A stretch of DNA of 64,000 nt from an uncultured Chloroflexia bacterium (GCA_963711035.1 CAVQCN010000003.1:398290-462289), one strand, 5' to 3'; shown: positions 7,771 to 41,100, counted from the first letter of the stretch. Translations and numbers: made by a program. The notes: generated from the sequence alone by a model not told the origin.

Positions 7771-7806
7771 CGTCATTCTGAGCGGAGCGAAGAATCTCCC
7801 CGGACA
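7771..7806 (+). repeat. Copy A of ~38-nt interspersed hairpin repeat (CGTCATTCTGAGCGGAGCGAAGAATCTCCCCGGAC)
   Basis: Near-identical copies at 14000-14037 (-), 17288-17326 (+) and 17373-17410 (+), and a degenerate copy at 41063-41100 (-). Confidence 0.8.
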
Positions 7807-7941
7807 GCACAACGTGTGTGGGACTACGGTCCGACCGGGATTGGTTCGTCGCTCCGCTCCTCGCAATGACGATGCCGCCGCCCTTTTGCCCCGGTGCCCC
7901 GTCGCGTATGCTCCAGAAAACGACAGAAGGACCCACCCCGA

Positions 7942-8204
7942 TGGCTGCCTACCTCGCCCGCGTCTACGTCTCCCTCAAGCCGACGGTCAACGATCCCCAG
8001 GGCCTGACCATCGCCGACGGCTTGCGCTCGCTGGGCTTTCGTGAGGTGGAGGGCGTGCGCGCTGGCAAGTACATCGAGATTCGGCTCAACGCCGCAAGCT
8101 TCGAAGCCGCGCGCCTCCAGGTCGACGCGATGTGCGACCGGATGCTGGCAAACCCAATCATCGAGTCCTACCGCTTCGAGATCGAGGAGATGGTCTCGGC
8201 CTGA
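7942..8204 (+). CDS. purS: Phosphoribosylformylglycinamidine synthase subunit PurS
   Basis: 87 aa from the internal ATG (MAAYLARVYVSLKPTVNDPQG...); classic PurS length and sequence. The track ORF is extended upstream. Confidence 0.8.
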
Positions 8205-8286
8205 GGGGATTGCATCTCACGCACTCCCGCGCGGTAGGCATGTGCCAGAAGAGAACCTCCGCGGGAAACCGTCCGACAGAGGTCCG

Positions 8287-9147
8287 TCAGGTAGTGGCGA
8301 CGAGAAATTCTTCCGCGTTGTTCGGCGGACGCAGGCCATCGGCTCGGCCGGCAAAGTAGCGTTCGGTGAGAGAGGCCGCCGAAACGTGCTCGGCGTGTCG
8401 AAAACCGGCCTCTCGGGCCAGCGTCAGTATTTCGTCCGGTGTGAAGAAGCTGATGAACGGCGTCCCGCTGGCCCGCGCGCCCTGCGCCGCACCCTGGATC
8501 CCCGGACGCGCTGCCGACTCCGCCAGCTCGAACGGCAGCAGGAACGACATGGCGAACGTCGACCCCGGCGCCAGAGTCGCAAGCTGGCGCAGCGTTGCCG
8601 CGTTCGCCTCCTTGGTCAGGTACATGCTCACGCCCGTCGACGCCACGACCGCCGGCTGCCCAGCGTCGAAGCCGGCAGCGAGCAGTCGTTCCCACCAGCC
8701 TTCGCCCGCCTCGAAGTCGACCGGCACGAAGCGCAGCCACTCCGGGACGCCGAAGCCGAGTTCGATGAGGCGCTGGCGCTTCCAGGCCTGAGGACCAGGC
8801 TCGTCCACCTCGAACAGGTGCAGGCGGGAGGCGATCTCCGGCCGTCGCTGCGCGAACGTGTCCAGACCCGCTCCGAGGATCACGTACTGGCCGACGCCAC
8901 GACCCGCCTGCTCCTCGACCAGGTCTTCAATGAAACGGGCGCGGGCCACGATGGAGGCGCGAAACTGGCTCGTCCCCTGGGGATGCATGTCGCCGCGTTG
9001 ACGCCAGCCCTCCTCCGGCGCCACCAGGGTCAGCCCGATCTCGTCCTCGATGACGTGCGGCGGCGCATCGACCTCGACGTGCAGGGCTCGCCACAGGGCG
9101 ACTCTCACGGCCGTGCTTTCGGGGGCCACCTCTTCCTTGTCAGGCAT
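8287..9147 (-). CDS. Class I SAM-dependent methyltransferase, leucine carboxyl methyltransferase / TcmP-like family
   Basis: 286 aa. VILGAGLDT SAM-binding motif. Family typical of the Mycobacterium-like 'putative S-adenosyl-L-methionine-dependent methyltransferase' (LCM family). Confidence 0.7.
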   Translation of the reverse strand: MPDKEEVAPESTAVRVALWRALHVEVDAPPHVIEDEIGLTLVAPEEGWRQRGDMHPQGTSQFRASIVARARFIEDLVEEQAGRGVGQYVILGAGLDTFAQRRPEIASRLHLFEVDEPGPQAWKRQRLIELGFGVPEWLRFVPVDFEAGEGWWERLLAAGFDAGQPAVVASTGVSMYLTKEANAATLRQLATLAPGSTFAMSFLLPFELAESAARPGIQGAAQGARASGTPFISFFTPDEILTLAREAGFRHAEHVSAASLTERYFAGRADGLRPPNNAEEFLVATT

Positions 9148-9511
9148 GATGCTGGCCTCCGGAACCGTCCGTCTTACCCGGCGCCTGCAGGTTCCAGAGG
9201 TGCCCGTCGGGGTCGCGGACGATCATTTCTCTGGTTCCGTAATGGGTGTCCTCGAACGGCGTCACCACCTCGATGGCGGAGTCGGGACGAAACGCGGCAG
9301 CATCCGGCACCTTCAGGACGATCTGCATCCGCGTCTCCTGGTTTTCGGGCACTTCGGCGATGAAGACGTACGGGCCGTCGCCGTTCTTGAGCTGACCGGA
9401 GTCATGGTCGGTCTCGAACTCCAACTCGAAGCCCAGCGCCTGAAAGAACTTTGCTGCCTTGCCCCAGTTGTGAGTCTCCAGGAACACGGCCTCAATGCCC
9501 TCGGTCGTCAT
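9140..9511 (-). CDS. VOC (glyoxalase/bleomycin-resistance) family protein
   Basis: 123 aa with a VOC-fold sequence pattern. Overlaps its neighbours by 8 nt and 4 nt, so it is operonic. Confidence 0.65.
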
Positions 9512-9693
9512 GTCCTCTCTCCTTCTTCAGACGATTCCTGCTGCTTCCTGTGGGTGTCGTCGAGGTAGGCGCGCAGCGCATCGGCAACCAATGCCGAGAG
9601 GGACAGACCCGACTCGATGGAGTAGTGCTTGACCTGCTTGATCAGACTGATCGGCAGGTACACGTTGAACTGCTTGACCTCTTCGTCACTCAC
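9508..9693 (-). CDS. Ribbon-helix-helix (CopG-like) small DNA-binding protein
   Basis: 61 aa; [37 protein letters not shown] is RHH-like. Confidence 0.5.
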
Positions 9694-9784
9694 GGCGCTA
9701 GTATGCTAGCAAACTAGCTTGACGGCAAGCAACGCCCTTGGAGGCCGATTCTCCATTCAATCCGAACGGTAGAACGCCGGTTCC

Positions 9785-10384
9785 CTACCCGAGCGCTTCT
9801 TTCGTGCTCGGCGTCTGGCCGGCGCGGCGCGGGTCGATGCGCGTGGCGTTGCAGAGGGCGCGCCCCAGCGCTTTCGCCATCGCCTCGGCTTTGTGGTGGT
9901 CGTTGACGCCGGCGAGGATGCGCGCGTGCAGGTTGAAGCGGCCCTCGTCTGCCAGCGACTGCAGGAAGTGCTCGACGAGGTCGCAGGGCAGCTCGCCGAC
10001 GCTGACGCCGGACCACGAGACGCCGATCACGGCGTAGCCGCGGCCTGAGAGGTCGACGGCCACCTGCGCCAGAGCTTCGTCCAGCGGCACGAGCGCGTCG
10101 GCCATGCGCACGATGCCGCGGCCGTCGCCGACCGCCGCGGCCAGCGACCGCCCCAGGGCAATGCCAACGTCTTCGGTCGTGTGGTGCGGGTCGATGTGCA
10201 GGTCGCCGGTGGCCTTGACGCTGATGTCAAAGATGCCGTGGCGCGCGATCTGCGAGACGATATGGTCGAGCATGCCGATGCCCGTCGAGATGTCGGCCTG
10301 GCCGCTGCCGTCCAGGTCCCAGGTGACCTCGACGCTGGTCTCGCGCGTCTCGCGTTTGTAGGTGCCGGTGCGTTCTGATGCCAT
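9785..10384 (-). CDS. hisB: Imidazoleglycerol-phosphate dehydratase
   Basis: 199 aa; conserved HisB motifs (TRETSVEV, DPHHTTED, GINDHH). Confidence 0.9.
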   Translation of the reverse strand: MASERTGTYKRETRETSVEVTWDLDGSGQADISTGIGMLDHIVSQIARHGIFDISVKATGDLHIDPHHTTEDVGIALGRSLAAAVGDGRGIVRMADALVPLDEALAQVAVDLSGRGYAVIGVSWSGVSVGELPCDLVEHFLQSLADEGRFNLHARILAGVNDHHKAEAMAKALGRALCNATRIDPRRAGQTPSTKEALG

Positions 10385-10435
10385 AGTCGTACTAGAGTCG
10401 CCGTACGGGCGCGAAAACGCAATCGGTCATTTCGC

Positions 10436-11545
10436 CTAATACCCTGCCCTGACGCTGGCGACAGCCTCGCGCAGGGCGGCAAGCACACGGTCCGTCTGCT
10501 CGGGCCGGCCAACGCTGAAGCGCAGGTGGTTCTGCAGTAGCGGCGTATCGAAGTAGCGCACCATGATGCCTCGATCCATCAGCGCCGTCTGCAGCCGCTT
10601 CGCCTCGACGCCGTCGATGCGGCAGAGGATGAAGTTAGCGCGTGACGGATACACCGTGAACCCGGTCAGCAGCGCCAGCCCCTCCGCCAGGCGCTCGCGC
10701 TCGGTCTGCACCGCCGCGACGCGCTCCTGCAGCAGCGCCAGGTCTTCGAAGCTGGCCAGGGTCGCCACTTCGGCCGCGACGTTGATGCTGTAGGGCTGCT
10801 TGATGCGCATCGCGATCTCGGCGACGGCCGGATCGCAGATCATGTAGCCGATGCGCAGACCGGCGAGGCCTGCCCACTTGCTCAGCGTACGGATGATGAT
10901 CAGGTTTGAGCGCTCTCGTACCAGGTTGACGTAGCTCTCACCGGCGTACTCGGCGTAAGCCTCGTCGACCACGACAGGCAGGCCGGTGGCGAGCAGCGCC
11001 TCCAGCTCCTGACGAGTCAGCAGGTTGCCGGTCGGGTTGTTGGGTGAGACGGCGAAGATCAGGCGTGTGCCCTGCGCCGCATCGAGCGACGCCTCGATGT
11101 CCAGCGCGAAGTCCTCGCGGCGCGTGACGTGAACCGCCTCCTGGCCCAGCGTGCCGGCGAGGAAGGAGTACATGCCGAACGTGGGCGGGAAGTCGAGCAG
11201 CGCCTGTCCGGGGCCGACGAAGAGGCGGCAGCAGAGCTCGATGAGCTCATCGCTGCCCGCGCCGGGCACGATCCACTCGGGGCCGTAGCCAACATAACGG
11301 CCCACAACCTCCCGCAGCCGCATCTGCTCCGGATCGGGGTAGATGTGGTAGCTGCGGTAGGCCGCCAGCGCTTCGAGCGCCTTCGGGGCCGGACCGTAGG
11401 GGTTCTCGTTGGCGTCCAGCTTGTCGATGCGCTCTACCGACACACCCAGGCGCGAGGCGAGCGCCTCCGGCGGCTGAACGGGTACGTAGGGCGGCGCCGA
11501 CAGTAGATGCGGCTGTACGAGATCGAGGAGACGGTCCGAGCTCAT
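10436..11545 (-). CDS. hisC: Histidinol-phosphate aminotransferase
   Basis: 369 aa; class II aminotransferase (LDANENPYGP, KW pyridoxal-lysine region). Confidence 0.9.
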   Translation of the reverse strand: MSSDRLLDLVQPHLLSAPPYVPVQPPEALASRLGVSVERIDKLDANENPYGPAPKALEALAAYRSYHIYPDPEQMRLREVVGRYVGYGPEWIVPGAGSDELIELCCRLFVGPGQALLDFPPTFGMYSFLAGTLGQEAVHVTRREDFALDIEASLDAAQGTRLIFAVSPNNPTGNLLTRQELEALLATGLPVVVDEAYAEYAGESYVNLVRERSNLIIIRTLSKWAGLAGLRIGYMICDPAVAEIAMRIKQPYSINVAAEVATLASFEDLALLQERVAAVQTERERLAEGLALLTGFTVYPSRANFILCRIDGVEAKRLQTALMDRGIMVRYFDTPLLQNHLRFSVGRPEQTDRVLAALREAVASVRAGY

Positions 11546-12871
11546 TGCGGCAGGCGCTCTTCGATGGCGCGCGCGTGGCCGACGAAGCCCTCGGCGCGGG
11601 CGATGACGGCGCCGGCCGGGCCGAGGTCGAAGACGCCATCGGAGCTGAGGTCGATGACGGTGCTGAACTTGAGGAAGTCCTGCACGCTGAGCGGCGACGC
11701 GAAGCGCGCGGCGCCGCCCGTCGGCATGACGTGGCTGGGTCCCGCCGTGTAGTCGCCGATCGCTTCCGGCGACCCGTCGCCGATGAAGACGCCGCCGGCG
11801 TTGCGCACCAGGCCTGCCAAGCGGTGCGCGTCTTGCGCCAGGATGCAGAGGTGCTCGGGCGCGTACTCGCTGGCCAGCTCGACCGCCTCTTCGATGGTCG
11901 CGGCCACGACGGCTCCGCCACGATTGGCGAAGGCGGCACTGGCCACATTGCGTCGCGGCAGCACGGCAATGCGCTGCTCCAGCTCGGCGGCGACGTTGTC
12001 AGCCAGCTCCCGCGAGTTCGTTATGAAGATGGGCGAGGCGAGCTCGTCGTGCTCTGCCTGCGCCAGCAAGTCGGCGGCGCACAGCGCCGGGTCGGCCGTC
12101 TCGTCCGCCACGACCACCGTCTCCGTGGGGCCGTAGAGCGAATCGATGCCCACATCGCCGAAGACGGCGCGCTTGGCCAGCGTCACAAAGATGTTGCCGG
12201 GTCCGCAGAATCTTGTCGACGCGCGGGAAGCTCTCCGTGCCGTAGGCGAGCGCCGCGACGGCCTGGGCGCCGCTGGCCGCGAAGACGCGGTCGGCGCCGG
12301 CCATGGCGGCTGCTGCCAGCTTGACCGGCGGCACGACGCCGTCCGGCCCCGCCGGGCTGACCAGGACGAGGTTCTCGACGCCGGCGACCTTGGCCGGGAT
12401 CAGCGTGTGCAAGACGGAGGACGGGTACACCGTCAAAGTGCCGGGGGCGTAGACGCCGACGTTGCGGATGGCGCGCACCTGCACGCCCAGGCCCTCGTCG
12501 ACGTAGGAGGCGAGCACGCGGCGCATCTGCCCCTCGTGGTAGCGGCGCACGCGGCCGGCCGCGAACTCCAGCGCGTCGCGCAGCTGCGGCTCGATGGCGT
12601 CGACGGCGGCCTCGACCTCGGCGCGCGGGATCTCGAAGCGCGGGTACGGGAAGCCATCGAAGACCTCGCAGTAGCGGCGCACGGCCGCGTCACCCTCGCG
12701 ACGCACATCGGCGATGATGCGCTGCACGCTCTGGCCAGCGGTAAGCTCCTCGCCAAAGACGGCCGCGGTCATCGAGCGGCCCGCTTCGCCCAGCTCAAGC
12801 TCGGATGCTGCGCCGCGGCGCAGGATGGTGCGTCGTGCTTCGTCGGCGCCGACGAAGATACGCAGCGTCAT
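11542..12871 (-). CDS. hisD: Histidinol dehydrogenase, interrupted by an apparent 1-nt insertion frameshift near 12196-12210
   Basis: Track ORFs 11999..12871 (N-part, ...AQAVAALAYGTESFPRVDKI) and 11542..12186 (C-part, TLAKRAVFGDVGID...) are adjacent frames. The expected ...DKI(L)GPGNIFVTLAKR... is recovered by removing one base from attctgCggaccc. Confidence 0.8.
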
Positions 12872-12941
12872 AGCGCGCCGCCATCTCGAACGGCGCAGGC
12901 GCTGGTCGGAGCCGGGCCTGGTCGTAGCGCTGTGATAGGGC

Positions 12942-13886
12942 TTACTCGATGATCTTGTTCAACGGGTACTCGACGATACCGTGGGCGCCCGCCTTCTTCA
13001 GCCGGGGCACGATCACGTGAACGAGGTCCTCGAGGACGATCGTCGTGACGTCCACCCACGCCGGGTCGGAGAGCGAGGCGACGGTGGGCTTGTCGAGGGC
13101 GGGCAGGATGGCGAGGACGCTGTCCAGATCGTCTCGCGCGACGTTCATCGAGAGCCAGACCTTGCCTTCGGCCGCGAGCGCGCCGCTGAGCATCAAGGCA
13201 ACGTCCTCGATCTTCTGACGTTTCCAGTCGTCCTGCATGGCCTGCGGGCTGGCAATGAGACGAGGCCTGCTCTCGATGACGGTGTCGATGATGCGGAGAC
13301 CGTTGGCCCGCAGAGAGTTCCCGGTGACCGTCGCCTCCATGATCGCGTCGGCGAGGAGCGGAACTTTGACCTCCGTGGCGCCGTACGAGTACTCGACGAG
13401 GGCGTTGACGCCACGCGCTTCGAGAAACTCTCTTGTCAGCGACACCAGCTCCGTGGCAATCCTCTTGCCTTCGAGGTCGCGCACCTCGTGGACGGGGGAG
13501 TCATTCGGCACACAGAGCACCCAGCGCGTGAAGAAGCCGCTGGTCTTCGAGTTGACCTCGAGGATCTCGACTACGTTTGCTTTGGCCTCGCGAATGAGGT
13601 CCAGGCCCGTGAAGCCCGCGTCGATGAGGCCGTCCTGGATGTAGCGGGGCTGCTCTTGCGGCCTCACCAGCATGCACTCCATTTCGGGGTCGTCGACGCT
13701 GGGATGATAGGAACGGCTGGATACATTCATGTTGTAGCCGGCTTTGCGGAACAAGTCCACAGCCGCCTGCTGCAGGTTGCCGTTGGGAATGGCCAACCGG
13801 ATCCGCCGGGACTCCACGATGCGTTCCTCGTAGAAAAAAGAGCGCCTGCCGAGTGGCAGGCTGCCAGGGTACTGCCTTTCGCACAT
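12942..13886 (-). CDS. hisG: ATP phosphoribosyltransferase, long form
   Basis: ~300 aa with catalytic and C-terminal regulatory domains. The true start is probably a few codons inside the track ORF (RIRLAIPNGNL...). Confidence 0.85.
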   Translation of the reverse strand: MCERQYPGSLPLGRRSFFYEERIVESRRIRLAIPNGNLQQAAVDLFRKAGYNMNVSSRSYHPSVDDPEMECMLVRPQEQPRYIQDGLIDAGFTGLDLIREAKANVVEILEVNSKTSGFFTRWVLCVPNDSPVHEVRDLEGKRIATELVSLTREFLEARGVNALVEYSYGATEVKVPLLADAIMEATVTGNSLRANGLRIIDTVIESRPRLIASPQAMQDDWKRQKIEDVALMLSGALAAEGKVWLSMNVARDDLDSVLAILPALDKPTVASLSDPAWVDVTTIVLEDLVHVIVPRLKKAGAHGIVEYPLNKIIE

Positions 13887-13999
13887 AGTACCGCAGCCCC
13901 TCAGGAGCGTCCAACTGAGGTGACGGTCCGTCGTTGCGGGGAGCGGCAGCGACGAAGCAATCCCGGGCTCGGCGGCGTTATCTCTCAGACGGAGCGTTG

Positions 14000-14037
14000 T
14001 CCGAGGGGAGATTCTTCGCTCCGCTCAGAATGACAGC
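14000..14037 (-). repeat. Copy B of the ~38-nt interspersed repeat (upstream of hisG, downstream of purC)
   Basis: The reverse complement reads TGTCATTCTGAGCGGAGCGAAGAATCTCCCCTCGGAC. Confidence 0.8.
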
Positions 14038-14087
14038 GCTGGTGGCGGCGGCCGGCCTTGCCCGACTGCACGATTGCGGCCGCCGCG

Positions 14088-14987
14088 CTAGAACCGCAGC
14101 AGCTCGCGGCCGGTGAGGCGCCGGTAGGCCTCGTGGTAGCGCTCGCTGGTCTTGAGGACGATGTCGTCGGGAAGGGTGGGCGGCGGCGGCTCGCGGTTCC
14201 AGCCTGAGTCGAGCAGCCAGTTGCGTACGAACTGCTTGTCGAAGCTGGGCTGTGATCGGCCCGTCTCGTACTGGTCGGCGGGCCAGAAGCGGGACGAGTC
14301 CGGCGTCAGCATCTCGTCGATGATGATCGGCTCGCCGTCGACGATGCCGAACTCGAGTTTCGTGTCGGCGATGATGATGCCGCGCTCGCGGGCGTACTGC
14401 AGGGCGTACTTGTAGATCGCCAGCGTGCGGATACGGATGGCGTTGGCGACCTCGGCGCCGACGAGGTCGATCAGCTCATCCGAGCTCATGTTCGTGTCGT
14501 GGCCAACTTCTGCTTTCGTCGTCGGTGTGAACAGCGGCTCCGGGAACGCCTCCGATTCGACCATGCCGGCCGGCATGCGCAGGCCGCAGACGCGCCCCGT
14601 CTCCTGATACTCGGCCCATGCTGAGCCCGTGAGGTAGCCCCGCGCGATGCACTCCACGTCGAGGCGCTGTGCCTTGCGCACGATCGTGCTGCGGCCGAGC
14701 AGCTCCGGCGGCAGCGCGAAGGGGAGCTCGTCTGCCTCGGAGCCGTCGGCGAGGCGCAGGAAGTGATTCGGCACCACGTCCTCGGTGAGCTGGAACCAGA
14801 AGGCAGACATCTGGCTGAGCACGGCGCCCTTGTCCGGGATGCCGTTGGGCAGGATGGAATCGAAAGCGGAGATGCGGTCCGTGGCGACGATCAGCAGGCG
14901 GCCATCGCCGAGGTCGTACGTGTCGCGCACCTTGCCGCGGTATGTGCGGTCGGGCAGCTCGGTGTCAAGCAGGACTTGCGGGCTCAT
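14088..14987 (-). CDS. purC: Phosphoribosylaminoimidazole-succinocarboxamide synthase (SAICAR synthetase)
   Basis: 299 aa; typical PurC N-terminal (YRGKVRDTYDLGDGRLLIVATDRISAFD) and ATP-grasp-like motifs. Confidence 0.9.
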   Translation of the reverse strand: MSPQVLLDTELPDRTYRGKVRDTYDLGDGRLLIVATDRISAFDSILPNGIPDKGAVLSQMSAFWFQLTEDVVPNHFLRLADGSEADELPFALPPELLGRSTIVRKAQRLDVECIARGYLTGSAWAEYQETGRVCGLRMPAGMVESEAFPEPLFTPTTKAEVGHDTNMSSDELIDLVGAEVANAIRIRTLAIYKYALQYARERGIIIADTKLEFGIVDGEPIIIDEMLTPDSSRFWPADQYETGRSQPSFDKQFVRNWLLDSGWNREPPPPTLPDDIVLKTSERYHEAYRRLTGRELLRF

Positions 14988-15838: not shown

Positions 15839-17194
15839 TCAGGCTTCGAGGAGGCCGACGCGGGCGAAGCTCTTGTCGACCTCGCGGGTGAAGTAGCCGT
15901 AGTCGAAGAGGGCGTCGAGCTCGGCCGGCGTCAGCAGCTTCTGCACGGCGGACTGCTCGCCGATCGTCTCGCGGAAGGGGCGCCGCTCGGCCAGCGCCTG
16001 GTGGGCGGCGTACTGGACAATGGGGTAGGCGGTCTGGCGCGCCATATCCTTCTCGACCAGCGTGAGCAGCACGCGCTGCGAGAAGACGACGCCGTGGGTC
16101 AGATTCATGTTCTCCAGCATGCGCTGCGGATAGACGACCAGCCCCCGCACGATGCCGGTGAACAGCGTCAGCATGTAATCCAGCGCCAGGCAGGAGTCCG
16201 GGATGATGACGCGCTCGACGGACGACTGGCTGATGTCCCGCTCGTGCCAGAGGGCGACATTCTCAAGGGCGGCGTTGGCGTTGGCGCGGAGGATACGGGC
16301 CAGGCCGCAGATGCGCTCGCACTTCTCAGGGTTGCGCTTGTGCGGCATCGAGCTGGAGCCCTGCTGGTGCAGGCCGGAGGTCGAGCCGCCCTCGATGGGG
16401 CGCAGGTGCAGGTCCATGCCGCCGGTGCTGAACGGCTCCTCGGCTTCGCCGACCTCGGTGCGCTGCAGGTGACGGATCTCGGTGGCGAAGCGCTCCAGCG
16501 AGGCGCCGATCAGGGCCAGCGTCTGCAGGTAATGGGCGTGGCGGTCACGCGAGACGATCTGGGTGCTGACCTTGTCGACGCCGAGGCCGATGCGCTCGCA
16601 GACGCGCTCTTCCAGCTCCGGTGGCACCGTCGCGTGGCTACCCACCGGCCCGCTGAGCTTGCCAACGGCGATGTCTGCGCGCGCAGCTTCCAGGCGCTCC
16701 CGGCCGCGGCGCACCTCGTCGAGCCAATTGATCAGCTTGAGGCCGAAAGTGATGGGCTCGGCGTGCATGCCGTGCGTGCGGCCCATGCAGATCGTGTCCT
16801 TGTACTCGAGGGCACGAGAGGCGATCGCCGCGTCGAGCTGCTGCAGGTCTTCGGCGATAAGCTCGGCGGCCTCGACCATGCGCAGGGCGGTGGCCGGGTC
16901 CTCCGTGTCGTACGAGGTGAGGCCGAGGTGCAGCCAGCGCTGCTCCTCGCCCAGGCTGTCGTTCACGGAGCGCAGGAATGCATTCATGTCGTGGTGCATC
17001 TCGCGCTCGTAGCGGTCAATGTCCTCGACACGGAAGGAGGCGTTGCGGGCGATCTTGTCGGCGTCCTCGCGCGGCACGGCTCCGAGGTCGGCCCAGGCCT
17101 GTACGGCCGCGATCTCCACCTTGAGCCAGGAGGCGAACTTGTTCTCCTCCGACCAGATGCGGGCCATTTCGGGACGGGAATATCGGGATATCAC
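15839..17194 (-). CDS. purB: Adenylosuccinate lyase
   Basis: 451 aa; fumarase/lyase class II signature (GSSSMPHKRNP). Confidence 0.9.
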   Translation of the reverse strand: MISRYSRPEMARIWSEENKFASWLKVEIAAVQAWADLGAVPREDADKIARNASFRVEDIDRYEREMHHDMNAFLRSVNDSLGEEQRWLHLGLTSYDTEDPATALRMVEAAELIAEDLQQLDAAIASRALEYKDTICMGRTHGMHAEPITFGLKLINWLDEVRRGRERLEAARADIAVGKLSGPVGSHATVPPELEERVCERIGLGVDKVSTQIVSRDRHAHYLQTLALIGASLERFATEIRHLQRTEVGEAEEPFSTGGMDLHLRPIEGGSTSGLHQQGSSSMPHKRNPEKCERICGLARILRANANAALENVALWHERDISQSSVERVIIPDSCLALDYMLTLFTGIVRGLVVYPQRMLENMNLTHGVVFSQRVLLTLVEKDMARQTAYPIVQYAAHQALAERRPFRETIGEQSAVQKLLTPAELDALFDYGYFTREVDKSFARVGLLEA

Positions 17195-17287
17195 AGCTTA
17201 GTCTACTCCGGCGCTGAGGAGCCGAACAACGGCGGGACGACATCGGGCAACCGGGCAGTCCGGCAACGACGTCGCATCATCCGCCAG

Positions 17288-17460
17288 CGTTGTCATTCTG
17301 AGCGGAGCGAAGAATCTCCCTCGGTCACGGCTCGACCGACCGAGATGCCGCTTCTCGCATGACGAAGGGCGGCGTTGTCATTCTGAGCGGAGCGAAGAAT
17401 CTCCCCGGACGACGCGCCGCCCGTGAGACGGCGGCCCCGACCGAGATTGCTTCGTCGCTA
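17288..17460 (+). repeat. Two tandem ~85-bp units, each the ~38-nt repeat core (C1 17288-17326, C2 17373-17410) followed by a variable hairpin
   Basis: Cores CGTTGTCATTCTGAGCGGAGCGAAGAATCTCCC(TCGGTC / CGGAC). Each is followed by CGACCGAGAT(T)GC... containing short hairpins (CTTCTCG...CGAAG, CTTCGTC...GACGAAG). Confidence 0.75.
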
Positions 17461-17491
17461 TCGCTCCTCGCAAGGACGAAGGACGACGCTC

Positions 17492-19352: not shown

Positions 19353-19522
19353 GGGTTCAGCGCCTCCCCGCGCCTGGCTAAGAATGTAGCGCTCGGCTGG
19401 CAGCGGCGGCAACGTTGTCTTGATCACGAGCGAAAAACGCGATGCGTTTCACTGTCTATGCAGCGCCGGCTCCTTTACTATCGTTTCATGCAGGCCGGGT
19501 TTCCCAACCGGGGGCAGCGCTC

Positions 19523-21490
19523 ATGAGAGACCTACCCGCTGACGGCGCCATTCCGCCGCGGGTTGTCATCGAGCACGTCCAGCCAGAGGTCGATGGCGGT
19601 CGATTCGCCGTGAAGCGCGTCGAGGGCGATCTCGTGCGCGTCGAGGCCGACATCTTCGCCGACGGCCACGACGAGCTGGACGCGCGTCTCTTCTATCGCA
19701 AGGCCGGCGAGCCGCATTGGCACGAAACGGCGATGACGCTGATTAACAACGACCACTGGTTCGGCGAGTTCACCGTCGAAGAGCTCGGCGAGTACGTCTA
19801 CCGCCTCACCGGCTGGGTGGACCACTTCGCCACCTGGCGCCGCGACTTCCGCAAGTGGTTGGAGGTGCGCCAGGACATCGAGTCGGAGCTGCTCGTGGCG
19901 GCGGGCCTCGTGCGGAATGCGGCGGCCAACGCCTCCGGGCAGGACGCGAGGCTGCTGGCGGAGCGCGCGGCCGCCCTGGCCGCCGCCACGGACGTCGATA
20001 CTCGCGCCGAGCTGGCGCTGGACGACTCGTTGGCCGATCTGATGGTGACCTACGGCGATCACGGCACGATTACCGAGTACGACCGCGGCCAGCGCATCTT
20101 CGTGGACCGCGAGCGGGCGCGCTTCGGCACCTGGTACGAGATGTTCCCGCGCTCGACGTCGCCGGATGAGAGCCGGCAGGGCACCTTCCGCGACTGTATC
20201 GCGCGCTTGCCGTACGTCAGCGACATGGGCTTCGACGTCGTCTACTTCCCGCCTATCCACCCTATCGGTGAGACGAACCGCAAAGGGCGCAACAACTCGC
20301 CGATCTCGCAGCCGGGCGAGCCGGGCAGCCCCTGGGGCATCGGCTCGGCGGCGGGCGGCCACAAGGCCATTGACCCGAAGCTCGGCACACTCGAGGACTT
20401 CCGGGCGCTCGTGGCGGCAGCGCAGGATCGCGGTATGGAGGTGGCGCTCGACATAGCCTTCCAGTGCTCGCCGGACCACCCGTACGTCAAAGAGCAGCCG
20501 CAGTGGTTCCGGCACCGGCCGGACGGCTCGTTGCGCTACGCCGAGAACCCCCCGAAGAAGTACGAGGACATCTACCCGATTAACTTCGAGACGGAGGACT
20601 GGCAGGCGCTCTGGCAAGAGTTGACCAGCGTGATCCTGTTCTGGGCGGAGCAGGGCGTGCAGATCTTCCGCGTCGATAACCCACACACGAAGTCGTTTGC
20701 CTTCTGGGAGTACGCGATCGCAGCCGTGAAAGCGCAGCACCCGGGCGCCATCTTCCTGGCCGAGGCGTTCACGCGACCGCGCATCATGTATCAGCTGGCC
20801 AAGCTGGGCTTTACGCAGTCGTACACGTACTTCACCTGGCGCAACGACCCCAGGGAGATGAACGAATATCTCACCGAGCTCACGACCACCGAGGTGAAGG
20901 AGTACTTCCGCCCCAACTTCTGGCCCAATACGCCAGACATCCTGCATGAGGTCCTGCAGACGGGCGGGCGCCCCACCTTCCTCATGCGCTACGTCCTCGC
21001 CGCGACTCTGACGGCGAACATCGGCATTTACGGGCCGGCGTACGAGCTCATTGTCAACGAGCCGCGGGAGCCGGGCAGCGAGGAGTATCTGCACTCGGAG
21101 AAGTACGAGGTCAAGCACTGGGACCTGGATGCACCAGATAGCCTGGCGACGTTCATCGGCCTCGTGAATCGCATCCGGCGCGACAATCCGGCGCTGCAGT
21201 GGAACGAAACGTTGCGCTTTCTCGACAACAGCAACGGCATGATCCTCGCTTACACCAAGACGAGCCGTGACGGCTCGAATGTCGTGCTCGCCGTCGTGAA
21301 CATGGACCTCTTCAACCGCCAGGAGGTCAGCTTCCGCCTGCCACTAGCGGAGCTTGGCCTGCCGACCGACAATCCGTACGAGGTCGAAGATCTGCTGCAC
21401 CAAACGCGGTTCACATGGTCCGGCGAGTGGCAGACCGTTTCTCTCGACCCGGCAGAGCTTCCGGCCCTGATCTTCAAGCTGAATCCGTAG
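19523..21490 (+). CDS. glgE: Alpha-1,4-glucan:maltose-1-phosphate maltosyltransferase
   Basis: ~655 aa GH13_3 protein with GlgE-specific N-terminus (...RVVIEHVQPEVDGGRFAVKRVEGD...). An alternative start is 19442. Confidence 0.85.
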   Translation: MRDLPADGAIPPRVVIEHVQPEVDGGRFAVKRVEGDLVRVEADIFADGHDELDARLFYRKAGEPHWHETAMTLINNDHWFGEFTVEELGEYVYRLTGWVDHFATWRRDFRKWLEVRQDIESELLVAAGLVRNAAANASGQDARLLAERAAALAAATDVDTRAELALDDSLADLMVTYGDHGTITEYDRGQRIFVDRERARFGTWYEMFPRSTSPDESRQGTFRDCIARLPYVSDMGFDVVYFPPIHPIGETNRKGRNNSPISQPGEPGSPWGIGSAAGGHKAIDPKLGTLEDFRALVAAAQDRGMEVALDIAFQCSPDHPYVKEQPQWFRHRPDGSLRYAENPPKKYEDIYPINFETEDWQALWQELTSVILFWAEQGVQIFRVDNPHTKSFAFWEYAIAAVKAQHPGAIFLAEAFTRPRIMYQLAKLGFTQSYTYFTWRNDPREMNEYLTELTTTEVKEYFRPNFWPNTPDILHEVLQTGGRPTFLMRYVLAATLTANIGIYGPAYELIVNEPREPGSEEYLHSEKYEVKHWDLDAPDSLATFIGLVNRIRRDNPALQWNETLRFLDNSNGMILAYTKTSRDGSNVVLAVVNMDLFNRQEVSFRLPLAELGLPTDNPYEVEDLLHQTRFTWSGEWQTVSLDPAELPALIFKLNP

Positions 21491-21496
21491 GAATCG

Positions 21497-24846
<3,350 letters not shown>

Positions 24847-24847
<1 letters not shown>

Positions 24848-32078: not shown

Positions 32079-32675
32079 TCAGGTTGTCGTCGCGCGGTTG
32101 AAGACGTCCATGGCGCGCTCCCAGCCGACGCGAATGACCGCCTCGATGGCATCGCAAGCCCGTTCCACGGCATCGTGGAGCATCTGCTTCGAGACGGCGG
32201 GCGGGTCGCCGAGCACGTAGTCCATGACGATGTCTGGATCCCAGGTCGGAACGCCCTGGTGGTACGGCCGCCCGATGCCGACACGCACACGGCCGAAGTC
32301 GCTGCTGTTCGTGGCGGCGATGATCGACTTGAGGCCGTTGTGGCCGCCGGAACCGCCGTGCTGGCGGATGCGGATGCGCCCCTCCGGCAGGTCGAGTTCG
32401 TCGTAGATCACGAGCAGGTGATTCGCCTCCACACGCTCGCGTTTCAGCGCCGGACCGATTGCCCTCCCGCTCTGGTTCATCCAGGTGCGAGGCTTGATCA
32501 GCAGCACCTCGGCGCCCTCGATCGTCCCCTTGCCCTCGGCGGCGGTGCGGCTGCTCTTCATGGGGATCGAGTGGCGGCGTGCCAGCTCGTCCACGCACCA
32601 GAAGCCCGCGTTGTGGCGCTGGCCTGCATGCTCGGCGCCGGGATTGCCCAGCCCGGCAATGACGTAGTCGGTCAT
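32079..32675 (-). CDS. pth: Peptidyl-tRNA hydrolase
   Basis: 198 aa; GLGNPG...RHNAGF and HGGSGGHNGLKS signatures. Confidence 0.95.
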   Translation of the reverse strand: MTDYVIAGLGNPGAEHAGQRHNAGFWCVDELARRHSIPMKSSRTAAEGKGTIEGAEVLLIKPRTWMNQSGRAIGPALKRERVEANHLLVIYDELDLPEGRIRIRQHGGSGGHNGLKSIIAATNSSDFGRVRVGIGRPYHQGVPTWDPDIVMDYVLGDPPAVSKQMLHDAVERACDAIEAVIRVGWERAMDVFNRATTT

Positions 32676-33892: not shown

Positions 33893-33960
33893 GCGCCCCG
33901 TGCTTCAGGCCGGGGCTTCGTGTCGAGTAGCCGCGGCTTTCAAGCCGCAGTGGGCTCGTC

Positions 33961-35870: not shown

Positions 35871-35883
35871 GCGCGTCGTTTCA

Positions 35884-35927
35884 GAAGAAGACGGCCCCGG
35901 GGTTGCGGACCCGGGGCCGTCTTCTTC
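35884..35927. terminator. 18-bp perfect hairpin (GAAGAAGACGGCCCCGGG / CCCGGGGCCGTCTTCTTC); probable terminator with a weak U-run
   Basis: Seen directly, 14 nt after the stop of the upstream + gene. Confidence 0.5.
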
Positions 35928-36018
35928 TTATACCACCTGAGTGCTCGCAAGACGGGAGCCTGGCTCATCCTGAGGCTCTCAAAGGATGAGCGACTACGAT
36001 CACAGCCTTCGCTGACAC

Positions 36019-37111
36019 CTAGTCGAACGTGATGACGGTGCGGACGACCTCGCCGGCTTCCATCGCCCGGAAGGCCTCCATCAGGTCATCGAGATGGGCG
36101 CGGCGCGTGACCATCTCGTCCAGACGCAAGTTGCCCTGCATGTAGAACTCGACGTAGCGCGGCATGTCGATGCGGAAGCGGTTGCTGCCCATCTGGCTGC
36201 CCTGAAACTTGCCCCGCATCAGCCAGCGCCCGTCGATCTCGACGTTCTGGCCCACCGGCACCAGGCCGATTACCGTCGCCGTGCCGCCCACCGCGATCGA
36301 CTGGATGCACTGCTCCGCCGTCTTCTTGCCGCCGATCGCCTCGAAGGCGTAGTCGACGCCGCCGCCCGTCATGTCGCGGATCGCCTGCACCGGGTCGTGC
36401 GAGGACGCATCGATGACGTGCGTGGCGCCGAATTCCTTCGCCGTCGCCAGCTTGTTCTCGAATACGTCCACGGCGATGATCTGCCGCGCTCCGGAGATGC
36501 GGGCGCCCTGGATCGCCGAGATGCCGATGCCGCCGGCGCCGAACACCGCGACGGTCGAGCCCGGCTCCACCTTGGCCGTGTTCATGACGGCGCCCATGCC
36601 GGTCGTGACGCCGCAGCCGATGAGCGCGGCCTGCTCGAAGGGCATGTCGTCGCGGATCTTCACCAGGGCGTGCTCGTGCACCAGCATCTTCTCGGCGTGC
36701 GTGGAGAGGCCGCTGTGCTGGAAGAGCGACTGGCCGTTCCAGCTCAGGCGTGGCTTCTGGTCCGGCGCGCGCAGCAGGTCCGGGCGGTTGGTGCAGCGGA
36801 AGGGGTTGCCGCTGAGGCACTGGTCGCAGTTTCCGCAGAAGGACGAGAGGCACATGATCACGTGGTCGCCCGGCTTCACATAAGTGACGTTGGGGCCTAC
36901 CGCTTCGACGATGCCGGCACCCTCGTGCCCCATGACGGCCGGGATGTTCATGATCGGAGTCGCCGTGCAGGTAGTGCAGGTCACTGTGGCAGACACCACT
37001 CGCCATGGTGCGCACCAGCACCTCGTTGGCCATCGGCGAGTCGATCTCGACGTCTTCGATGGCGACTTCGGGGAACGGCGCGCTGGTCTTGCGCAAAACG
37101 GCAGCTTTCAC
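36019..37111 (-). CDS. Zn-dependent alcohol dehydrogenase (MDR family) with apparent frameshift near 36950-36965
   Basis: The N-terminal frame gives MKAAVLRKTSAPFPEV...GVCHSDLHYLHGD then goes off-frame. The adjacent frame gives ...PIMNIPAVMGHEGAGIVEAVG... through the C-terminus. The two track ORFs overlap in different frames. Confidence 0.75.
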
Positions 37112-37329
37112 GATCTCTCTCCCTCTGCTTGCGTGGCGTGGTGGTGGCTGGCCGCAGTCTCGTCAAAGCGGCGTGGCGTGTCAAGGCGAAGCGGCGCCGA
37201 GGGTGACACACGTGGCGCGGAAGCGCGTTAGAACATAAGAGACCAGGACAAGGATCGTCTGGTGTCGCTGTGCCGGGAAGGAGCCGTTCGGCCTTCGCTT
37301 AACCCCTCTTCTCGACAATAACATCCAGA

Positions 37330-37932
37330 TTGACGACGGATTCGTATCTCCACTGGACGGATCTGTCGCCTCGCCCGTCTCGCTCGAAATTCGCTCTGAA
37401 TTGGGGGCCTCTTACCCTGTCCGTCGACCAATCTGCTCAGCCCGAGGGGCGAACCATGGTGACAGACGTCCGGGTCGCGACCTCGGTTGGACACGTGCCT
37501 CAAGACCTGGCACGGCAAGCGGGACGTCGCCGTGAATCGTTGCGTCTGACGCGCGGCTGGTGCGTCCTCTTCATCCTGGCCCTGACGGTTGCCGTCGATC
37601 TGCTGATCATCTCGCGCATGGTGTTCCTGATAGTCGGCGTGTCGAGCGGTGTCGGCTCGACGGTCGTCGACGTGACGAACCCCCTGGTCACGCCGTTCCT
37701 GGGCGACATCTCGCGCCACATCGACCACGACCAGACCTTCGAGCCGGAGCTGCTCATCGCCGTGGCGTTCTACGGCGGCATGGGGCTGCTGGCCGCGTTC
37801 CTGTTGCTCATCGCCGGCCTCCTTGCTCGGCTGTTCGGGTTCGTGCTCGGCGTCTTCCACTCGGAGCCTCGCGCGCCTCTGCCGATCGATGAGGGGCAGG
37901 AGGCTCGGATCCGGGACCGGGTCGGTCGATGA
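37330..37932 (+). CDS. Hypothetical small membrane protein (YggT-like?)
   Basis: TM helices. Probable start at the internal MVTDVRV (~37455). ATGA overlap with the PBP gene. Confidence 0.4.
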   Translation: MTTDSYLHWTDLSPRPSRSKFALNWGPLTLSVDQSAQPEGRTMVTDVRVATSVGHVPQDLARQAGRRRESLRLTRGWCVLFILALTVAVDLLIISRMVFLIVGVSSGVGSTVVDVTNPLVTPFLGDISRHIDHDQTFEPELLIAVAFYGGMGLLAAFLLLIAGLLARLFGFVLGVFHSEPRAPLPIDEGQEARIRDRVGR

Positions 37933-40575
37933 TCCAGCGGCGCCGGCGCAGGTCGATCCTCTTTCACCTCAGCATCCTGGCCATCCTCGCCTTCGTCGGC
38001 GTGTTCATCGCGGGCCTCGTCGCGTCGAGCGCCGCGTATGTCGTCTACCGCAACGAGGTCAGCGACTTCGTTTCGCCCGATGAGCTGGCCGTGAACCAGC
38101 CGGCGGTCGGCGCCAAGATTCTGGACCGCAACGGCAACCTCCTCTACCAGGTCGTCAGCAGCGACTACGGTATCCGCAACCCGGTGACGCTGGACAACGT
38201 GGCGCCTGCGTTCCTGGCGGCAACGATCGCGACCGAGGACAAATCGTTCTACCAGAACGCGGGCATCAACCTGCAGGGCATCCTGCGCGCGTCTACCGAA
38301 AACCTGAACTTCCTGGGCGGGAAGGACCTGTTCCAGGGCAGCGGCGGCAGCTCGATCACGCAGCAGCTGGTCAAGAACCTCTACATCCCCCAGGACGAGC
38401 GCTACGAACGCAGCCTCGACCGCAAGGTCAAAGAGGTCGTCTACGCCCTGGAGATGACGCGCCGCTACAGCAAGGACCAGATCCTGCAGTGGTACGTGAA
38501 CCAGATCAGCTACGGCGGCCTGCTCAACGGCATCGAGGCGGCGTCCGAGGGCTACTTCGGCAAGACGGCGAGCGAGCTGACCCTGGCCGAAGCAGCGCTC
38601 ATCGCCGGCCTGCCCCAGTCACCGGCCGAGTACGACCCGTACGAGCATCCCGACACCGCCATCGCGCGCCGCAACGAAGTGCTCGACCTCATGGCAAAGA
38701 TGAAGCGCGTCCAGATCGGGCCGGACCGGTACTTCGACATATCGCAGCAGGACATCGACGCCGCGAAGGATGCTCCTCTCGAGCTGAAACCGCGCGACAT
38801 CGACATCCGGGCGCCGCACTTCGTCCTCACCTACGTCATGCCGCGCCTGGAGCAGATGTTTGGCACCGAGGCCCTGCAGCGTGACGGCCTCGTCATTCAG
38901 ACGTCGCTCGACCTCGATCTGCAGAACGAGGTGCAGGGCACCCTAGAGAAGTGGGTGGCGCAGTACGAGGACGCTTCCAACAGCCACAACGGCGCCGTCA
39001 CCGTCCTCGACTCGCAGACCAGCCAGATCCTGGTCATGCTCGGCAGCCGCGACTACTACCGCAAGGACATCCAGGGCGAGAACAACAACCTGCTGGCACT
39101 GAACTCGCCCGGCTCGTCATTCAAGCCGTTCGTGTACCTGACGGGCTTCGCCGACCTGGGCTGGACGCCCGCGACCATGCTGGACGACAAGCCGACGCAG
39201 TACGTCGAGTCGGACGGCTCCATCTTCGTGCCGCACGATCCAATCAAGAACCAGTACCTGGGGCGGGTCACGGTGCGCTCGGCGCTCGGCAACTCGCTGA
39301 ACATCCCGGCCTTCAACGCGGCCAAAGCGATCGGCATCCAGTCGATCGTCGACATGGCGCACAAGTTCGGCTTCACGACGTTCAACGGCCAGTACGGTCC
39401 GTCCATCGCCATCGGCGGCACCGATATCCGCGTCCTCGATCTCGCCTACGCCTACAGCACGCTGGCGCGCGCCGGCGAGATGGTCGGCGACCCGACGGTG
39501 CTGCCGGACGATCTCGACAAGCGGCAGATGGAGCCCGTCTCGATCCTCTCGGTGAAGGCGGCGGATGGCACCGTGCTCTACGACTGGAACCAGCGCCTGC
39601 TACGCACGCAGGTCGTCTCACCGGAGCAGGCGTTCCTCGTGACCTCGATCCTGACCGACGGCCACGCCGAGTGCATCACCTTCGGCTGCGGCGGCCTGCA
39701 GTTCAGCGGCATGACCGTCGCCGTGAAGACGGGCACCAGCGAGCCCTTCGCTCCGGACGGCCCGGACGCGGGCAAGATCGGCGAGACGCTGGCCTTTGGC
39801 TACACGCCCGACTACGTCGTCGGTGTCTGGGCCGGCAACGCGGATAACTCACCCGTGCAGAACATCTACAGCACGACGATCGCGTACCAGATCATGCACG
39901 ACGCGATGCTGGAGACGTACAACGGCCGCCAGGCGACGCCGTTCGCGGAGCCGCCTGGCGTCACGCACGTCCGCATCTGCGATCGACGACGGCTGTCGCA
40001 CGGACCTCGCCCTGAAATCGCAGGTCGCTGAGCTGACGCGTGCGGCGCAGAGCAGCCCCACGCCGGCGGTGATCGATCAGCGCACCGGCCAGCCGGCGAA
40101 TGACTCGACGCCGCCGCAGTTTCTCGTGACGGCCACTCCGACGCCGACCACCACGAGCGCCAACGGCCAGCAGAACCAGGCCCAGGCTGCTCCGACGCCA
40201 TCACCGACGTCCACGCCGATCCCGGCTGCCACGACCGCTCCGACGAATAGCGGCGGCAACGCCGTGCCGCCGAGCGGCGGAAATCCCGTGGCGGTGATTA
40301 CGGCACCAAATGGCTCCGTGGCTGCGGGTAGCGTGGTTCAGATCACGGGCACGGCCACGTCTATCGCCTTCGACCACTACACGTTGCAGTACAGCAGCAC
40401 TGCGTTACCCGGGAGCTGGGTCACGATCGGCACGTCGCCGACGCCGGTGACTAGTGGCACGCTGGGCACCTGGGTCCTGAGCGGCGTTCCCAGTGGGCAA
40501 TACGTCATCCGTCTGGTCGTCGCCGACAAGGTCGGCCAGACGGCGAGTTCGATCGCCCAGATCGCGGTGCAGTAG
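37929..40575 (+). CDS. Class A penicillin-binding protein (transglycosylase/transpeptidase, PBP1A-like) with C-terminal PT-linker and beta-rich extension; apparent frameshift near 39978-39995
   Basis: GT51 motifs (GSSITQQLVKNLY), transpeptidase SSFKP, SLN, KTGT. The track ORF ends abruptly at ...VTHVRICDRRRLSHG*, and the adjacent frame continues as ...DDGCRTDLALKSQ...PT-rich...VIRLVVADKVGQ. Confidence 0.8.
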
Positions 40576-40581
40576 GAGCGT

Positions 40582-40992
40582 ATGACGAACAACGGGTTCA
40601 ACGGCGGCGGAGGCTCGCGCGTACGGTTGGCGTTCATCGCCGGCCTGACGTTCGCCGTCCTTGCCCTGGTCTGGGTTGCCGTCTTCTACGTAGCGGCCGG
40701 ACTGGCGCACGACCAGGTCGACTCCCTGAGCGACGCTACGGCGCCTGCGGCTACGCCCTCGATGGACATTCGCTTCGACTGCGAGGAGATCGAACGCACC
40801 GCCTTCCGGTCTGCCGCCGAACGCGACTGGTTCGAGTCGACGTGTCCACAGGCGCAGCGGGAGGTTCAGCCCACGCCTGCGCCGCTGCCGACGGCCGGCC
40901 CTGACCGCACCGACTGCAACGAGATTCGCGGCACGGCCTATCGCAGCCCGCAGGAGCGGCAGTTCTATCTCTCGAACTGCATCGCCAACTAG
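40582..40992 (+). CDS. Small membrane-anchored protein with two Cys-containing repeats
   Basis: 136 aa: N-terminal TM, then two ~28-aa repeats (DCEEIERTAFRSAAERDWFESTC / DCNEIRGTAYRSPQERQFYLSNC). Confidence 0.45.
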   Translation: MTNNGFNGGGGSRVRLAFIAGLTFAVLALVWVAVFYVAAGLAHDQVDSLSDATAPAATPSMDIRFDCEEIERTAFRSAAERDWFESTCPQAQREVQPTPAPLPTAGPDRTDCNEIRGTAYRSPQERQFYLSNCIAN

Positions 40993-41062
40993 GGAACGCT
41001 GCAGCATCGCCGAGGCCGCAGCGCGCTTGGACGTAAAGGACTTCTCGTCTTTTCGGGGTGCC

Positions 41063-41100
41063 TGCCGGGGGAGATGCTTCGCTGCGCTCAGCATGACAAC
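41063..41100 (-). repeat. Degenerate copy D of the ~38-nt repeat (GTTGTCATGCTGAGCGCAGCGAAGCATCTCCCCCGGCAGG)
   Basis: ATTCT/AGAAT in the other copies becomes ATGCT/AGCAT here, a compensatory change that preserves the 5-bp inverted repeat. Confidence 0.65.

Follow-up and report, generated by a model that had tools for sequence, protein, structure and literature searches.

Five copies of a short intergenic hairpin lie in a 64,000-nucleotide (nt) stretch of the genome of an uncultured Chloroflexia bacterium (GCA_963711035.1, CAVQCN010000003.1:398290-462289; "the window" below means this whole stretch), and four of the five fall within 10 kb, beside purS, purC/hisG, and purB. Do they form the binding site of a regulator of purine and histidine biosynthesis, as the initial annotation of this DNA had suggested, or did a dispersed repeat come to lie there in another way? 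The explanation that, as a whole, accounts best for the data is that these are copies of a YGTC-tagged repetitive extragenic palindromic (REP) sequence, linked to breakpoints of gene order and without a part in pur or his regulation, and to it we assign a probability of about 0.75.

Copies in the window and breaks in gene order

A 28-nt core of the repeat, GTCATTCTGAGCGGAGCGAAGAATCTCC, was exact at 7772-7799 (+), 14007-14034 (-), 17292-17319 (+), and 17377-17404 (+) and was found with three mismatches at 41070-41097 (-); these sites are designated elements E1 to E5 in that order (Table 1). No match to the core occurred in 100 shuffles of the window. The five intergenic sites of the initial annotation were recovered in this way, with coordinates off by a few bases; of the repeat unit of about 38 nt that it had proposed, the 28-nt core is shared, and the full 38-mer was exact solely at 17373-17410 (with three mismatches at 7768-7805). 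Building a covariance model had also been proposed, and that model, run with filters off over the whole 64 kb, returned the same five hairpins at 45 to 50 bits and no other credible site, the rest being noise. All copies in the window were located 7 to 80 nt past a stop codon, and their flanking genes were co-directional. The inconsistent orientation to neighboring genes remarked on earlier was seen here as well, with E1 and E2 sense and E3, E4, and E5 antisense with respect to transcription.

The source organism is Dehalococcoidia-like, and its gene order was compared with that of four or five relatives, at 82 to 86% PurC identity. The order common to these relatives was guaA-suhB-purD-purB-x-purC-purS, then hisB, hisC, hisD, and hisG on the opposite strand, and then nfeD (one relative is without purD). 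On the minus strand of the window, the order was purB, DUF7847, purC, E2, hisG, hisD, hisC, hisB, the methyltransferase gene, purS (reversed), E1, and the 2-hydroxyacid dehydrogenase gene. Compared with the relatives, the block from purS to hisG was inverted over 6.2 kb, and E1 (+) and E2 (-) were located exactly at its ends, in opposite orientation. The genes purD, suhB, guaA, and nfeD were absent from the window according to a tblastn map, and the tandem of E3 and E4 was found where purD, suhB, and guaA were expected. All three element sites near pur genes coincided with gene-order breaks; by our rough count, three elements on all three breakpoints among roughly ten junctions would occur by chance about 1 time in 120. 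The matching loci of the relatives were without a copy, both in a Hamming-distance scan of two of them and with the covariance model over all five (86.8 kb), versus five copies in the 64-kb window. For E5, the genes flanking the hydratase gene vary among relatives, so synteny comparison gave no signal.

The layout of E1 and E2 is the signature of inverted-repeat recombination or of replicative insertion within one molecule, and the data fit both alike. The local clustering of copies at the pur and his genes is a by-product of rearrangement, the breakpoints being marked by copies. Adjoining the breakpoint at E3 and E4, where relatives have purD, suhB, and guaA, genes for GlgE (maltosyltransferase) and then a TreS-maltokinase fusion were present at 19442-24847, constituting a GlgE alpha-glucan pathway.

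Anatomy of the elements and selection on the single arm

Half of each pair had been seen in the initial annotation: the hairpins of E1 to E4 that it reported are left arms, and the inverted right arms and a 5' extension had been overlooked. E1 to E4 are inverted pairs of about 75 to 110 nt in which a variable spacer of 20 to 40 nt separates two unlike units; at 17.3 kb, two of these pairs, E3 and E4, directly follow each other in tandem, and at 41 kb E5 stands as a lone unit. A unit is about 30 nt long and is laid out as YGTC, ATTCT, GAGC-GNA-GCGA, AGAAT, and C-Y-C, that is, an unpaired YGTC tag, a 5-bp stem opening with A-T, the invariant cap GAGC-GNA-GCGA, and a short C-rich tail. The cap would comprise two G.A mismatches, two G-C pairs, and a GNA triloop; G.A mismatches and GNA loops are known motifs, and this interpretation leans on them. 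The right-arm type (consensus, as reverse complement, CGTCATTGCGAGGAGCGGAGCGACGAAsCAATC) has the same design as the left arm plus a second GAG...CGA layer, as read from the aligned and folded sequences. A match to the tag-plus-stem pattern at 32642-32663 was rejected as chance; that sequence encodes the conserved N-terminus of peptidyl-tRNA hydrolase.

Tags in the window were CGTC in E1, TGTC in E2 to E5, and CGTC in the right arms. Among 254 other copies, the base before GTC was T in 85 to 88% and C in 6 to 10%, and the loop apex took all four bases. Tails were CTC or CCC in the window, mostly C and then TC in other copies, and CCA in alphaproteobacterial copies. A 5' extension of 40 to 50 nt, with two or three direct CGGGCAA/CGGGCAG heptamers, was common to E1, E2, and E3; it might represent a third arm that has degenerated or a module of its own. 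The E1 pair folded as one long imperfect hairpin (-54.4 kcal/mol, z = -4.6), and the other elements were less distinct in this respect.

The initial annotation had taken the exchange of ATTCT/AGAAT for ATGCT/AGCAT in the degenerate copy, E5, as a sign of selection on a hairpin. This compensatory exchange is present, the third difference of E5 being the base at the loop apex, and other copies bear the argument out with double changes at four of the five stem pairs. In 1.87 Mb from other organisms, in which the arms counted were outside the selection made by the search pattern, the other stems were ATCCT/AGGAT (19 arms), ACCCT/AGGGT (8 arms), ATGCT/AGCAT, ATTCC/GGAAT, and GTTCT/AGAAC. When 44 distinct arms were aligned, changes on both sides were found at those four stem pairs, none of 500 shuffles attained the covariation score, and pairing was destroyed when partner columns were slid; G-U pairs were nearly absent (2 of 308 cells). 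The stem started as AT...AT in all window arms, and in the alignment columns 6 and 26 were A-T in 40 of 44 rows and columns 7 and 25 were T-A in 35 of 44 and otherwise C-G. Across 17 heterodimers, 9.5 of 10 positions paired inside an arm versus 7.0 of 10 between arms, so that the selected unit is the small hairpin of each arm and not the long one.

Conservation also differed between parts of an element. E1 and E2 were identical at 35 of 36 and 34 of 38 positions in their arms, at 19 of 30 in the spacer, and at 33 of 49 in the extension; arms that are kept while spacer and extension drift require purifying selection, gene conversion, or independent arms.

Distribution and relation to known repeat families

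In a collection of one genome per species (596 Gb), the 25-mer GTCATTCTGAGCGNAGCGAAGAATC was present in at least 120 genome stretches, versus about 0.004 matches expected by chance according to our estimate, and the titles of these records named at least 15 phyla, including cultured isolates. Carriers were found in Nitrospirota, Nitrospinota, Chloroflexota, Acidobacteriota, Planctomycetota, Verrucomicrobiota, Omnitrophota, Bacteroidota, Ignavibacteria/Chlorobi, Fibrobacterota, Abditibacteriota, Patescibacteria (Gracilibacteria and Saccharimonadales), Bacillota, Alpha- and Betaproteobacteria, and Desulfobacterota. The 25-mer was also present in 92 stretches of viral contigs and on plasmids of cyanobacteria, Granulicella, Hymenobacter, and Novosphingobium, and the right-arm type was present on plasmids of Methylosinus, Methylocystis, Novosphingobium, Legionella, Halomonas, and Nostocales. 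The E1 right arm matched a left-arm sequence in Methylosinus pOB3b1 at 32 of 34 positions (hand count) and closely resembled an arm in Novosphingobium aromaticivorans pNL2, where the tail is CCA. A metagenome scan with an overly specific pattern gave 7 loci, none of which was from a close relative.

Dimers with tags outside were the commonest class (83 of 127 genome loci, by hand tally). Dimers with the exact cap in both arms had a median spacer of 36 nt, and 17 of 39 were heterodimers. According to all-against-all clustering of open reading frames (ORFs), the neighbors of copies in 120 listed genome loci were ordinary housekeeping genes with no family recurring among them, and over 219 listed loci the recurrent neighbor families were just phage structural proteins and a sensor-kinase-like family.

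Some copies are nested in larger elements. In Acidobacteriota (loci L032, L044, and L104, also L005 and L011), the hairpin pair was nested in an element of about 130 nt with the outer inverted repeats AACAGGCTGCGGAAAAA...TTTTTCCGCAGCCTGTT. Nearly the same element was present in a bin labeled Candidatus Saccharimonadales (L044; the bin also includes L062), which suggests mis-binning or recent transfer. Three metagenome contigs (L213, L215, and L217) contained near-identical copies of about 130 nt with the pair enclosed by another outer inverted repeat, AGCCATAAAAAATAC...GGTTTTTTACGGCT. The same pair within different outer repeats indicates a hairpin module embedded in differing lineage-specific shells. 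In a metagenome-assembled genome of Fibrobacter sp. (L031, 7165-7260), the exact 25-mer was located within an apparent lipoprotein signal peptide, MKNSFPSVILSVAKNLAMLSIAAVMFVACGG, with a second partial copy about 100 nt downstream; this copy may be an intragenic REP of the kind mentioned by Di Nocera et al.

A family of this layout has been described as the CGTC-tagged REPs, which include Neisseria dRS3 and Rickettsia RPE-4 and RPE-6 (Di Nocera, De Gregorio and Rocco 2013, BMC Genomics 14:522; PMC3733652). In the general description given there, the unit has an unpaired terminal CGTC tag (variants TGTC or CCTC), a stem of 8 to 9 bp that opens with complementary A-T, a loop of 4 to 5 nt, and a 3-nt tail of approximately CCA. 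Such units are described as forming mainly head-head (HH) dimers, often heterodimers, with tags outside and spacers of 20 to 100 bp, sited after coding regions between unidirectional genes, and that description associates no transposase with them. The five phyla that it gives do not include Chloroflexi, and N. aromaticivorans is among the species that it lists.

As far as this description reaches, the elements of the window agree with it in the tag, the A-T start of the stem, the HH heterodimers, the position after genes, and the lack of a flanked transposase, and four of the five copies are dimers with tags outside and spacers of 20 to 39 nt; moreover, the right arm of the window is near-identical to arms in the listed N. 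aromaticivorans and in Methylosinus, which have the tail CCA. The size of stem and loop and the tail fit loosely: compared with a stem of 8 to 9 bp and a loop of 4 to 5 nt, there are here five Watson-Crick pairs plus the cap and a 3-nt GNA loop, or nine stacked positions if the G.A mismatches are counted (non-complementary stem residues are allowed elsewhere in the same paper), and the tails of the window are CTC or CCC and not CCA. The placement is made at the level of the superfamily, by text description, and none of the groups CGTC-1 to CGTC-4 is picked. Judged from sequence, the elements of the window belong to the CGTC-tagged REP superfamily, and its phyletic range, at least 15 phyla with Chloroflexota (Dehalococcoidia) among them, is much wider than the five phyla of that account. 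The proposal of a novel family thus gave way to a known layout, with the 25-mer in viral contigs and plasmids besides these phyla. Full-text searches of the literature for the hairpin as DNA, its complement, its RNA spelling, and the encoded peptides gave primer noise or nothing.

Likeness to other repeat families was partial. REPIN-RAYT systems have a GTAG tag and a single-copy RAYT (Y1 HUH transposase) gene flanked by REPs and are lineage specific (Bertels and Rainey 2011, PMC3116915; Nunvar et al. 2010, PMC2817692). Like REPINs, the elements studied here consist of two inverted units plus a spacer, are able to form one long hairpin, and are intergenic and dispersed; unlike them, they have the tag YGTC, and the hairpin is nearly invariant across phyla. 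Membership in REPIN-RAYT was rejected on the tag; a RAYT gene was found neither in the 64-kb window, which is the part of the source genome covered, nor near the 219 listed loci.

With miniature inverted-repeat transposable elements (MITEs), they share a length of 75 to 150 nt, imperfect terminal inverted repeats, a non-coding sequence, and presence or absence between relatives; in contrast to MITEs, E1 to E4 show no visible target-site duplication, and each terminal repeat is itself a selected hairpin. We know of no parent insertion sequence for this element. REPs and bacterial interspersed mosaic elements (BIMEs) of Escherichia coli are mRNA 3' stabilizers and recombination hotspots, and like them the elements studied here are located just past stop codons inside operons, have RNA-hairpin potential, and are linked with rearrangements; the E. 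coli sequences (GTAG-3) are a different family, and the functional likeness is one of analogy. Hammerhead-like (GUC ... CUGA ... GAA) and other ribozymes were rejected, as the core misfits CUGANGA and Rfam was silent. CRISPR repeats, integron attC sites, and parS-like and CIRCE-like pan-bacterial operators were likewise rejected on layout and copy pattern, judged from their known forms.

Table 1. Position and setting of the five elements, of their parts, and of the inverted block
Feature	Position	Strand	Description and basis
E1 5' extension	7733..7770	+	Starts 7 nt past the 2-hydroxyacid dehydrogenase stop codon (7724-7726); alignment with E2 and E3; inverted repeat
E1 left arm (A type)	7771..7799	+	Tag CGTC, 5-bp stem ATTCT/AGAAT, cap GAGCGGAGCGA, tail CTCC; covariance model 44.9 bits, E = 2e-9
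E1 right arm (B type), inverted	7839..7871	-	CGTCATTGCGAGGAGCGGAGCGACGAACCAATC; with left arm forms a 101-nt pair, tags outside
E1 setting			Intergenic, between the 2-hydroxyacid dehydrogenase gene and purS
Inverted block purS, LCM methyltransferase, hisB, hisC, hisD, hisG	7872..13928	.	Gene identities, order in relatives, tblastn map
E2 right arm (B type)	13929..13962	+	34/38 identical to E1 right arm; E2 as a whole on minus strand
E2 left arm (A type)	14007..14035	-	Tag TGTC; covariance model 49.5 bits
E2 5' extension	14036..14079	-	Begins 8 nt past the purC stop codon (14088-14090); alignment
E2 setting			Intergenic, between purC and hisG
E3 5' extension	17242..17290	+	Upstream of purB start codon at 17194; alignment
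E3 left arm (A type)	17291..17319	+	Tag TGTC; covariance model 48.8 bits
E3 short right arm	17340..17365	-	TCGTCATGCGAGAAGCGGCATCTCGG; tag CGTC, stem ATGC/GCAT; weak covariance-model match
E4 left arm (A type)	17376..17404	+	Tandem, directly after E3; covariance-model match
E4 right arm (B type)	17443..17479	-	Ends 12 nt from the GFO/IDH/MocA oxidoreductase stop codon (17492); inverted repeat
E3 and E4 setting			Intergenic, tandem pair, between purB and the GFO/IDH/MocA oxidoreductase gene
E5 single A-type hairpin	41070..41098	-	Compensatory stem ATGCT/AGCAT, loop apex C; covariance model 47.7 bits
E5 setting			Intergenic, between a hypothetical gene (40582-40992, +) and the enoyl-CoA hydratase gene (41219-42037, +)
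Single-arm hairpin written as DNA, G/A strand			d(ATTCTGAGCGNAGCGAAGAAT)

Alternative explanations and significance

Several observations weigh against the explanation by breakpoint-linked REP copies. Nearest-neighbor folding gave no stability signal for a single arm (-1.9 kcal/mol as DNA, z = 0.24), and because these energies give no stable arm, the structure claim rests on covariation and on the known G.A and GNA motifs; the rows of the 44-arm alignment were preselected for at least four of five pairs, from which the percentage paired follows, but the double changes do not. Inspection of the sequence found no consistent direct repeat (target-site duplication) flanking E1 to E4, and with their drifted spacer and extension E1 and E2 do not look like a recent copy-and-paste of a whole dimer. 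The initial annotation had proposed looking for an associated RAYT/IS200-like transposase as mobilizer, and this search came out negative, with no transposase or recombinase family among about 50 ORFs of the window and no transposase-like recurrent neighbor among the 219 listed loci; mobility would follow solely from the presence versus absence of copies. The tally of five copies covers the 64-kb window of the source genome, and the relatives used for comparison are distant. Inverted repeats are places where a metagenome assembly can be joined wrongly, so the inversion might represent a variant of the assembly or of the population. Finally, gene-context counts in other genomes use crude ORF calls, and there was no clear depletion of copies in divergent gaps.

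Among the alternatives, a host-encoded structured RNA (an intercistronic terminator, attenuator, or mRNA-stabilizing hairpin) that is selected at the RNA level, its dispersal being secondary, is unlikely, and the evidence on it is divided. The location of all window copies shortly past stop codons between co-directional genes and the conservation of arms with drifting spacers agree with such an RNA, and so do the phages. A set of 29 related viral contigs (for example, L152, L156, L132, L209, L182, and L178; within L121-L212) share the portal, the major head protein, and a downstream gene module and have the hairpin in intergenic gaps that vary between contigs; frequently a stop codon comes first, then the hairpin, a ribosome-binding site, and ATG. 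The coding strand bears 31 of their 35 hairpins. Close phage relatives differ in what follows the major head gene, which may be this hairpin, its compensatory ACCCT/AGGGT form, another palindromic insert (about 90 nt), or no insert at all, stop and start then overlapping directly; that the relatives differ there in a palindromic insert or have none suggests that a stem-loop is wanted at this place. However, these contigs are kin to each other and have their genes all on one strand, and a replication-strand bias would look identical. Moreover, a scan of the sites for terminators and promoters was negative, with no U-tract terminator predicted at any of them. Copies in the window have both orientations, a crude count of bacterial loci showed no orientation bias, and G-U pairs are nearly absent. 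Rfam, with its riboswitches, ribozymes, and Chloroflexi/Acido/Bacteroides motifs, gave no match at the gathering score and noise only at E values up to 10. The preference of the initial annotation for a REP/MITE-like DNA repeat over a gene-specific cis-acting RNA is supported.

The regulator idea from which we started, an operator or binding site of a regulator that coordinates purine and histidine biosynthesis, fared far worse and is very improbable. It would account for four of the five copies lying beside purS, purC/hisG, and purB, with each copy also upstream of the next gene in its string, but this clustering is explained by the rearrangement breakpoints, and the relatives have the same genes with no copies in 86.8 kb. 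Across at least 15 phyla the identical 25-mer has unrelated housekeeping genes as neighbors, and in phages it is found in head operons; a pur or his homologue was found in just 1 of the 219 listed hairpin loci (1.7 Mb). A check for PurR sites, which had been proposed as well, detected no E. coli PurR box within three mismatches near any element and one match to the Bacillus subtilis PurBox (9 of 12 positions), which is at chance level.

Equally improbable is a programmed, reversible inversion switch with E1 and E2 as recombination sites that controls the his operon: oppositely oriented copies do flank exactly the inverted block, but no invertase or recombinase family is encoded among the roughly 50 ORFs of the window, non-flanking dimers of this hairpin are common, with hundreds of unrelated loci containing them, and one orientation alone was seen here. 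That the matches reflect chance, low-complexity sequence, or an assembly artifact can be all but dismissed. The one point in favor is that the source is probably a metagenome-assembled genome, but the hairpin is also present in cultured isolates and finished plasmids, and neither the 100 shuffles of the window nor the expectation for 596 Gb allows for matches in such numbers.

Elsewhere in the window, several features were recorded in their own right. On the minus strand, hisD was split in two frames near 12210 (12170-12250), with tblastn segments at 12856-12209 and 12213-11545; positions 12 to 193 and 201 to 411 of the Pfam Histidinol_dh domain are in different ORFs, and the shift is within the conserved VDKI-GPGN stretch. 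This is either a 1-nt indel error of assembly or a pseudogene. A cobalamin riboswitch (6406-6554, -; Rfam RF00174, 40.6 bits) was found directly upstream of a gene for a periplasmic binding protein (Peripla_BP_2; 5314-6258, -), which probably serves B12-regulated uptake. After a tRNA gene (49434-49506) come genes for an ImuB-like Y-family polymerase (49750-50934, with an IMS domain) and a DnaE2-like Pol III alpha subunit (51149-54433); this stretch, 49434-54433, resembles an imuB-dnaE2 mutagenesis cassette. Inside a PNPOx-like ORF (1794-2741), two direct repeats (29 and 63 nt, 87 to 90% identical, 425 nt apart; 1946-2121 and 2371-2546) suggest an internal tandem domain duplication.

For the elements themselves, the explanation by breakpoint-linked REP copies would imply the following course. 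Two unlike units facing away from each other across a spacer form "head-head heterodimers" of the REPIN kind, and by analogy with RAYT/GTAG REPs these units would be spread or maintained as single-stranded hairpins by a trans-acting factor encoded elsewhere. E1 and E2, acting as dispersed inverted homology or through replicative insertion in the same molecule, would have produced the inversion, which would have moved purS off purC and put hisGDCB downstream of purB-purC. Since the copies are located a few to 80 nt past a stop codon between co-directional genes, they would be co-transcribed, and their role, if any, would probably be to shield 3' ends or to dampen read-through as RNA hairpins between cistrons, which has been shown for REPs of E. 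coli.

A more speculative extension, which we consider doubtful, is that the YGTC-AT-stem-GAGCGNAGCGA hairpin goes beyond decaying selfish DNA and might be the recognition module of a widespread trans-acting system. This idea arises because at least 15 phyla, plasmids, and phage head operons have the hairpin in near letter-identical form, because its arms are fixed while spacers drift, and because no transposase is tied to it. To our knowledge, no dedicated enzyme or transposase has been tied to the CGTC-tagged REP superfamily since 2013. A candidate partner may be a conserved host factor or enzyme that binds, copies, or protects the hairpin in single-stranded DNA or RNA.

For the annotation of this genome, a tempting but false regulatory lead is removed, and a local oddity, namely, purS split from purC, hisGDCB behind purB-purC, and purD and guaA gone, is explained as repeat-associated rearrangement. 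The range of CGTC-type REPs is widened from the five phyla of 2013 to Chloroflexota and to at least 15 phyla plus phages. An older question is thereby sharpened, namely, what keeps a hairpin of about 25 nt near-invariant across bacteria and what spreads CGTC-type hairpins, and the covariance model and the series of phage junctions provide concrete material with which to address it.

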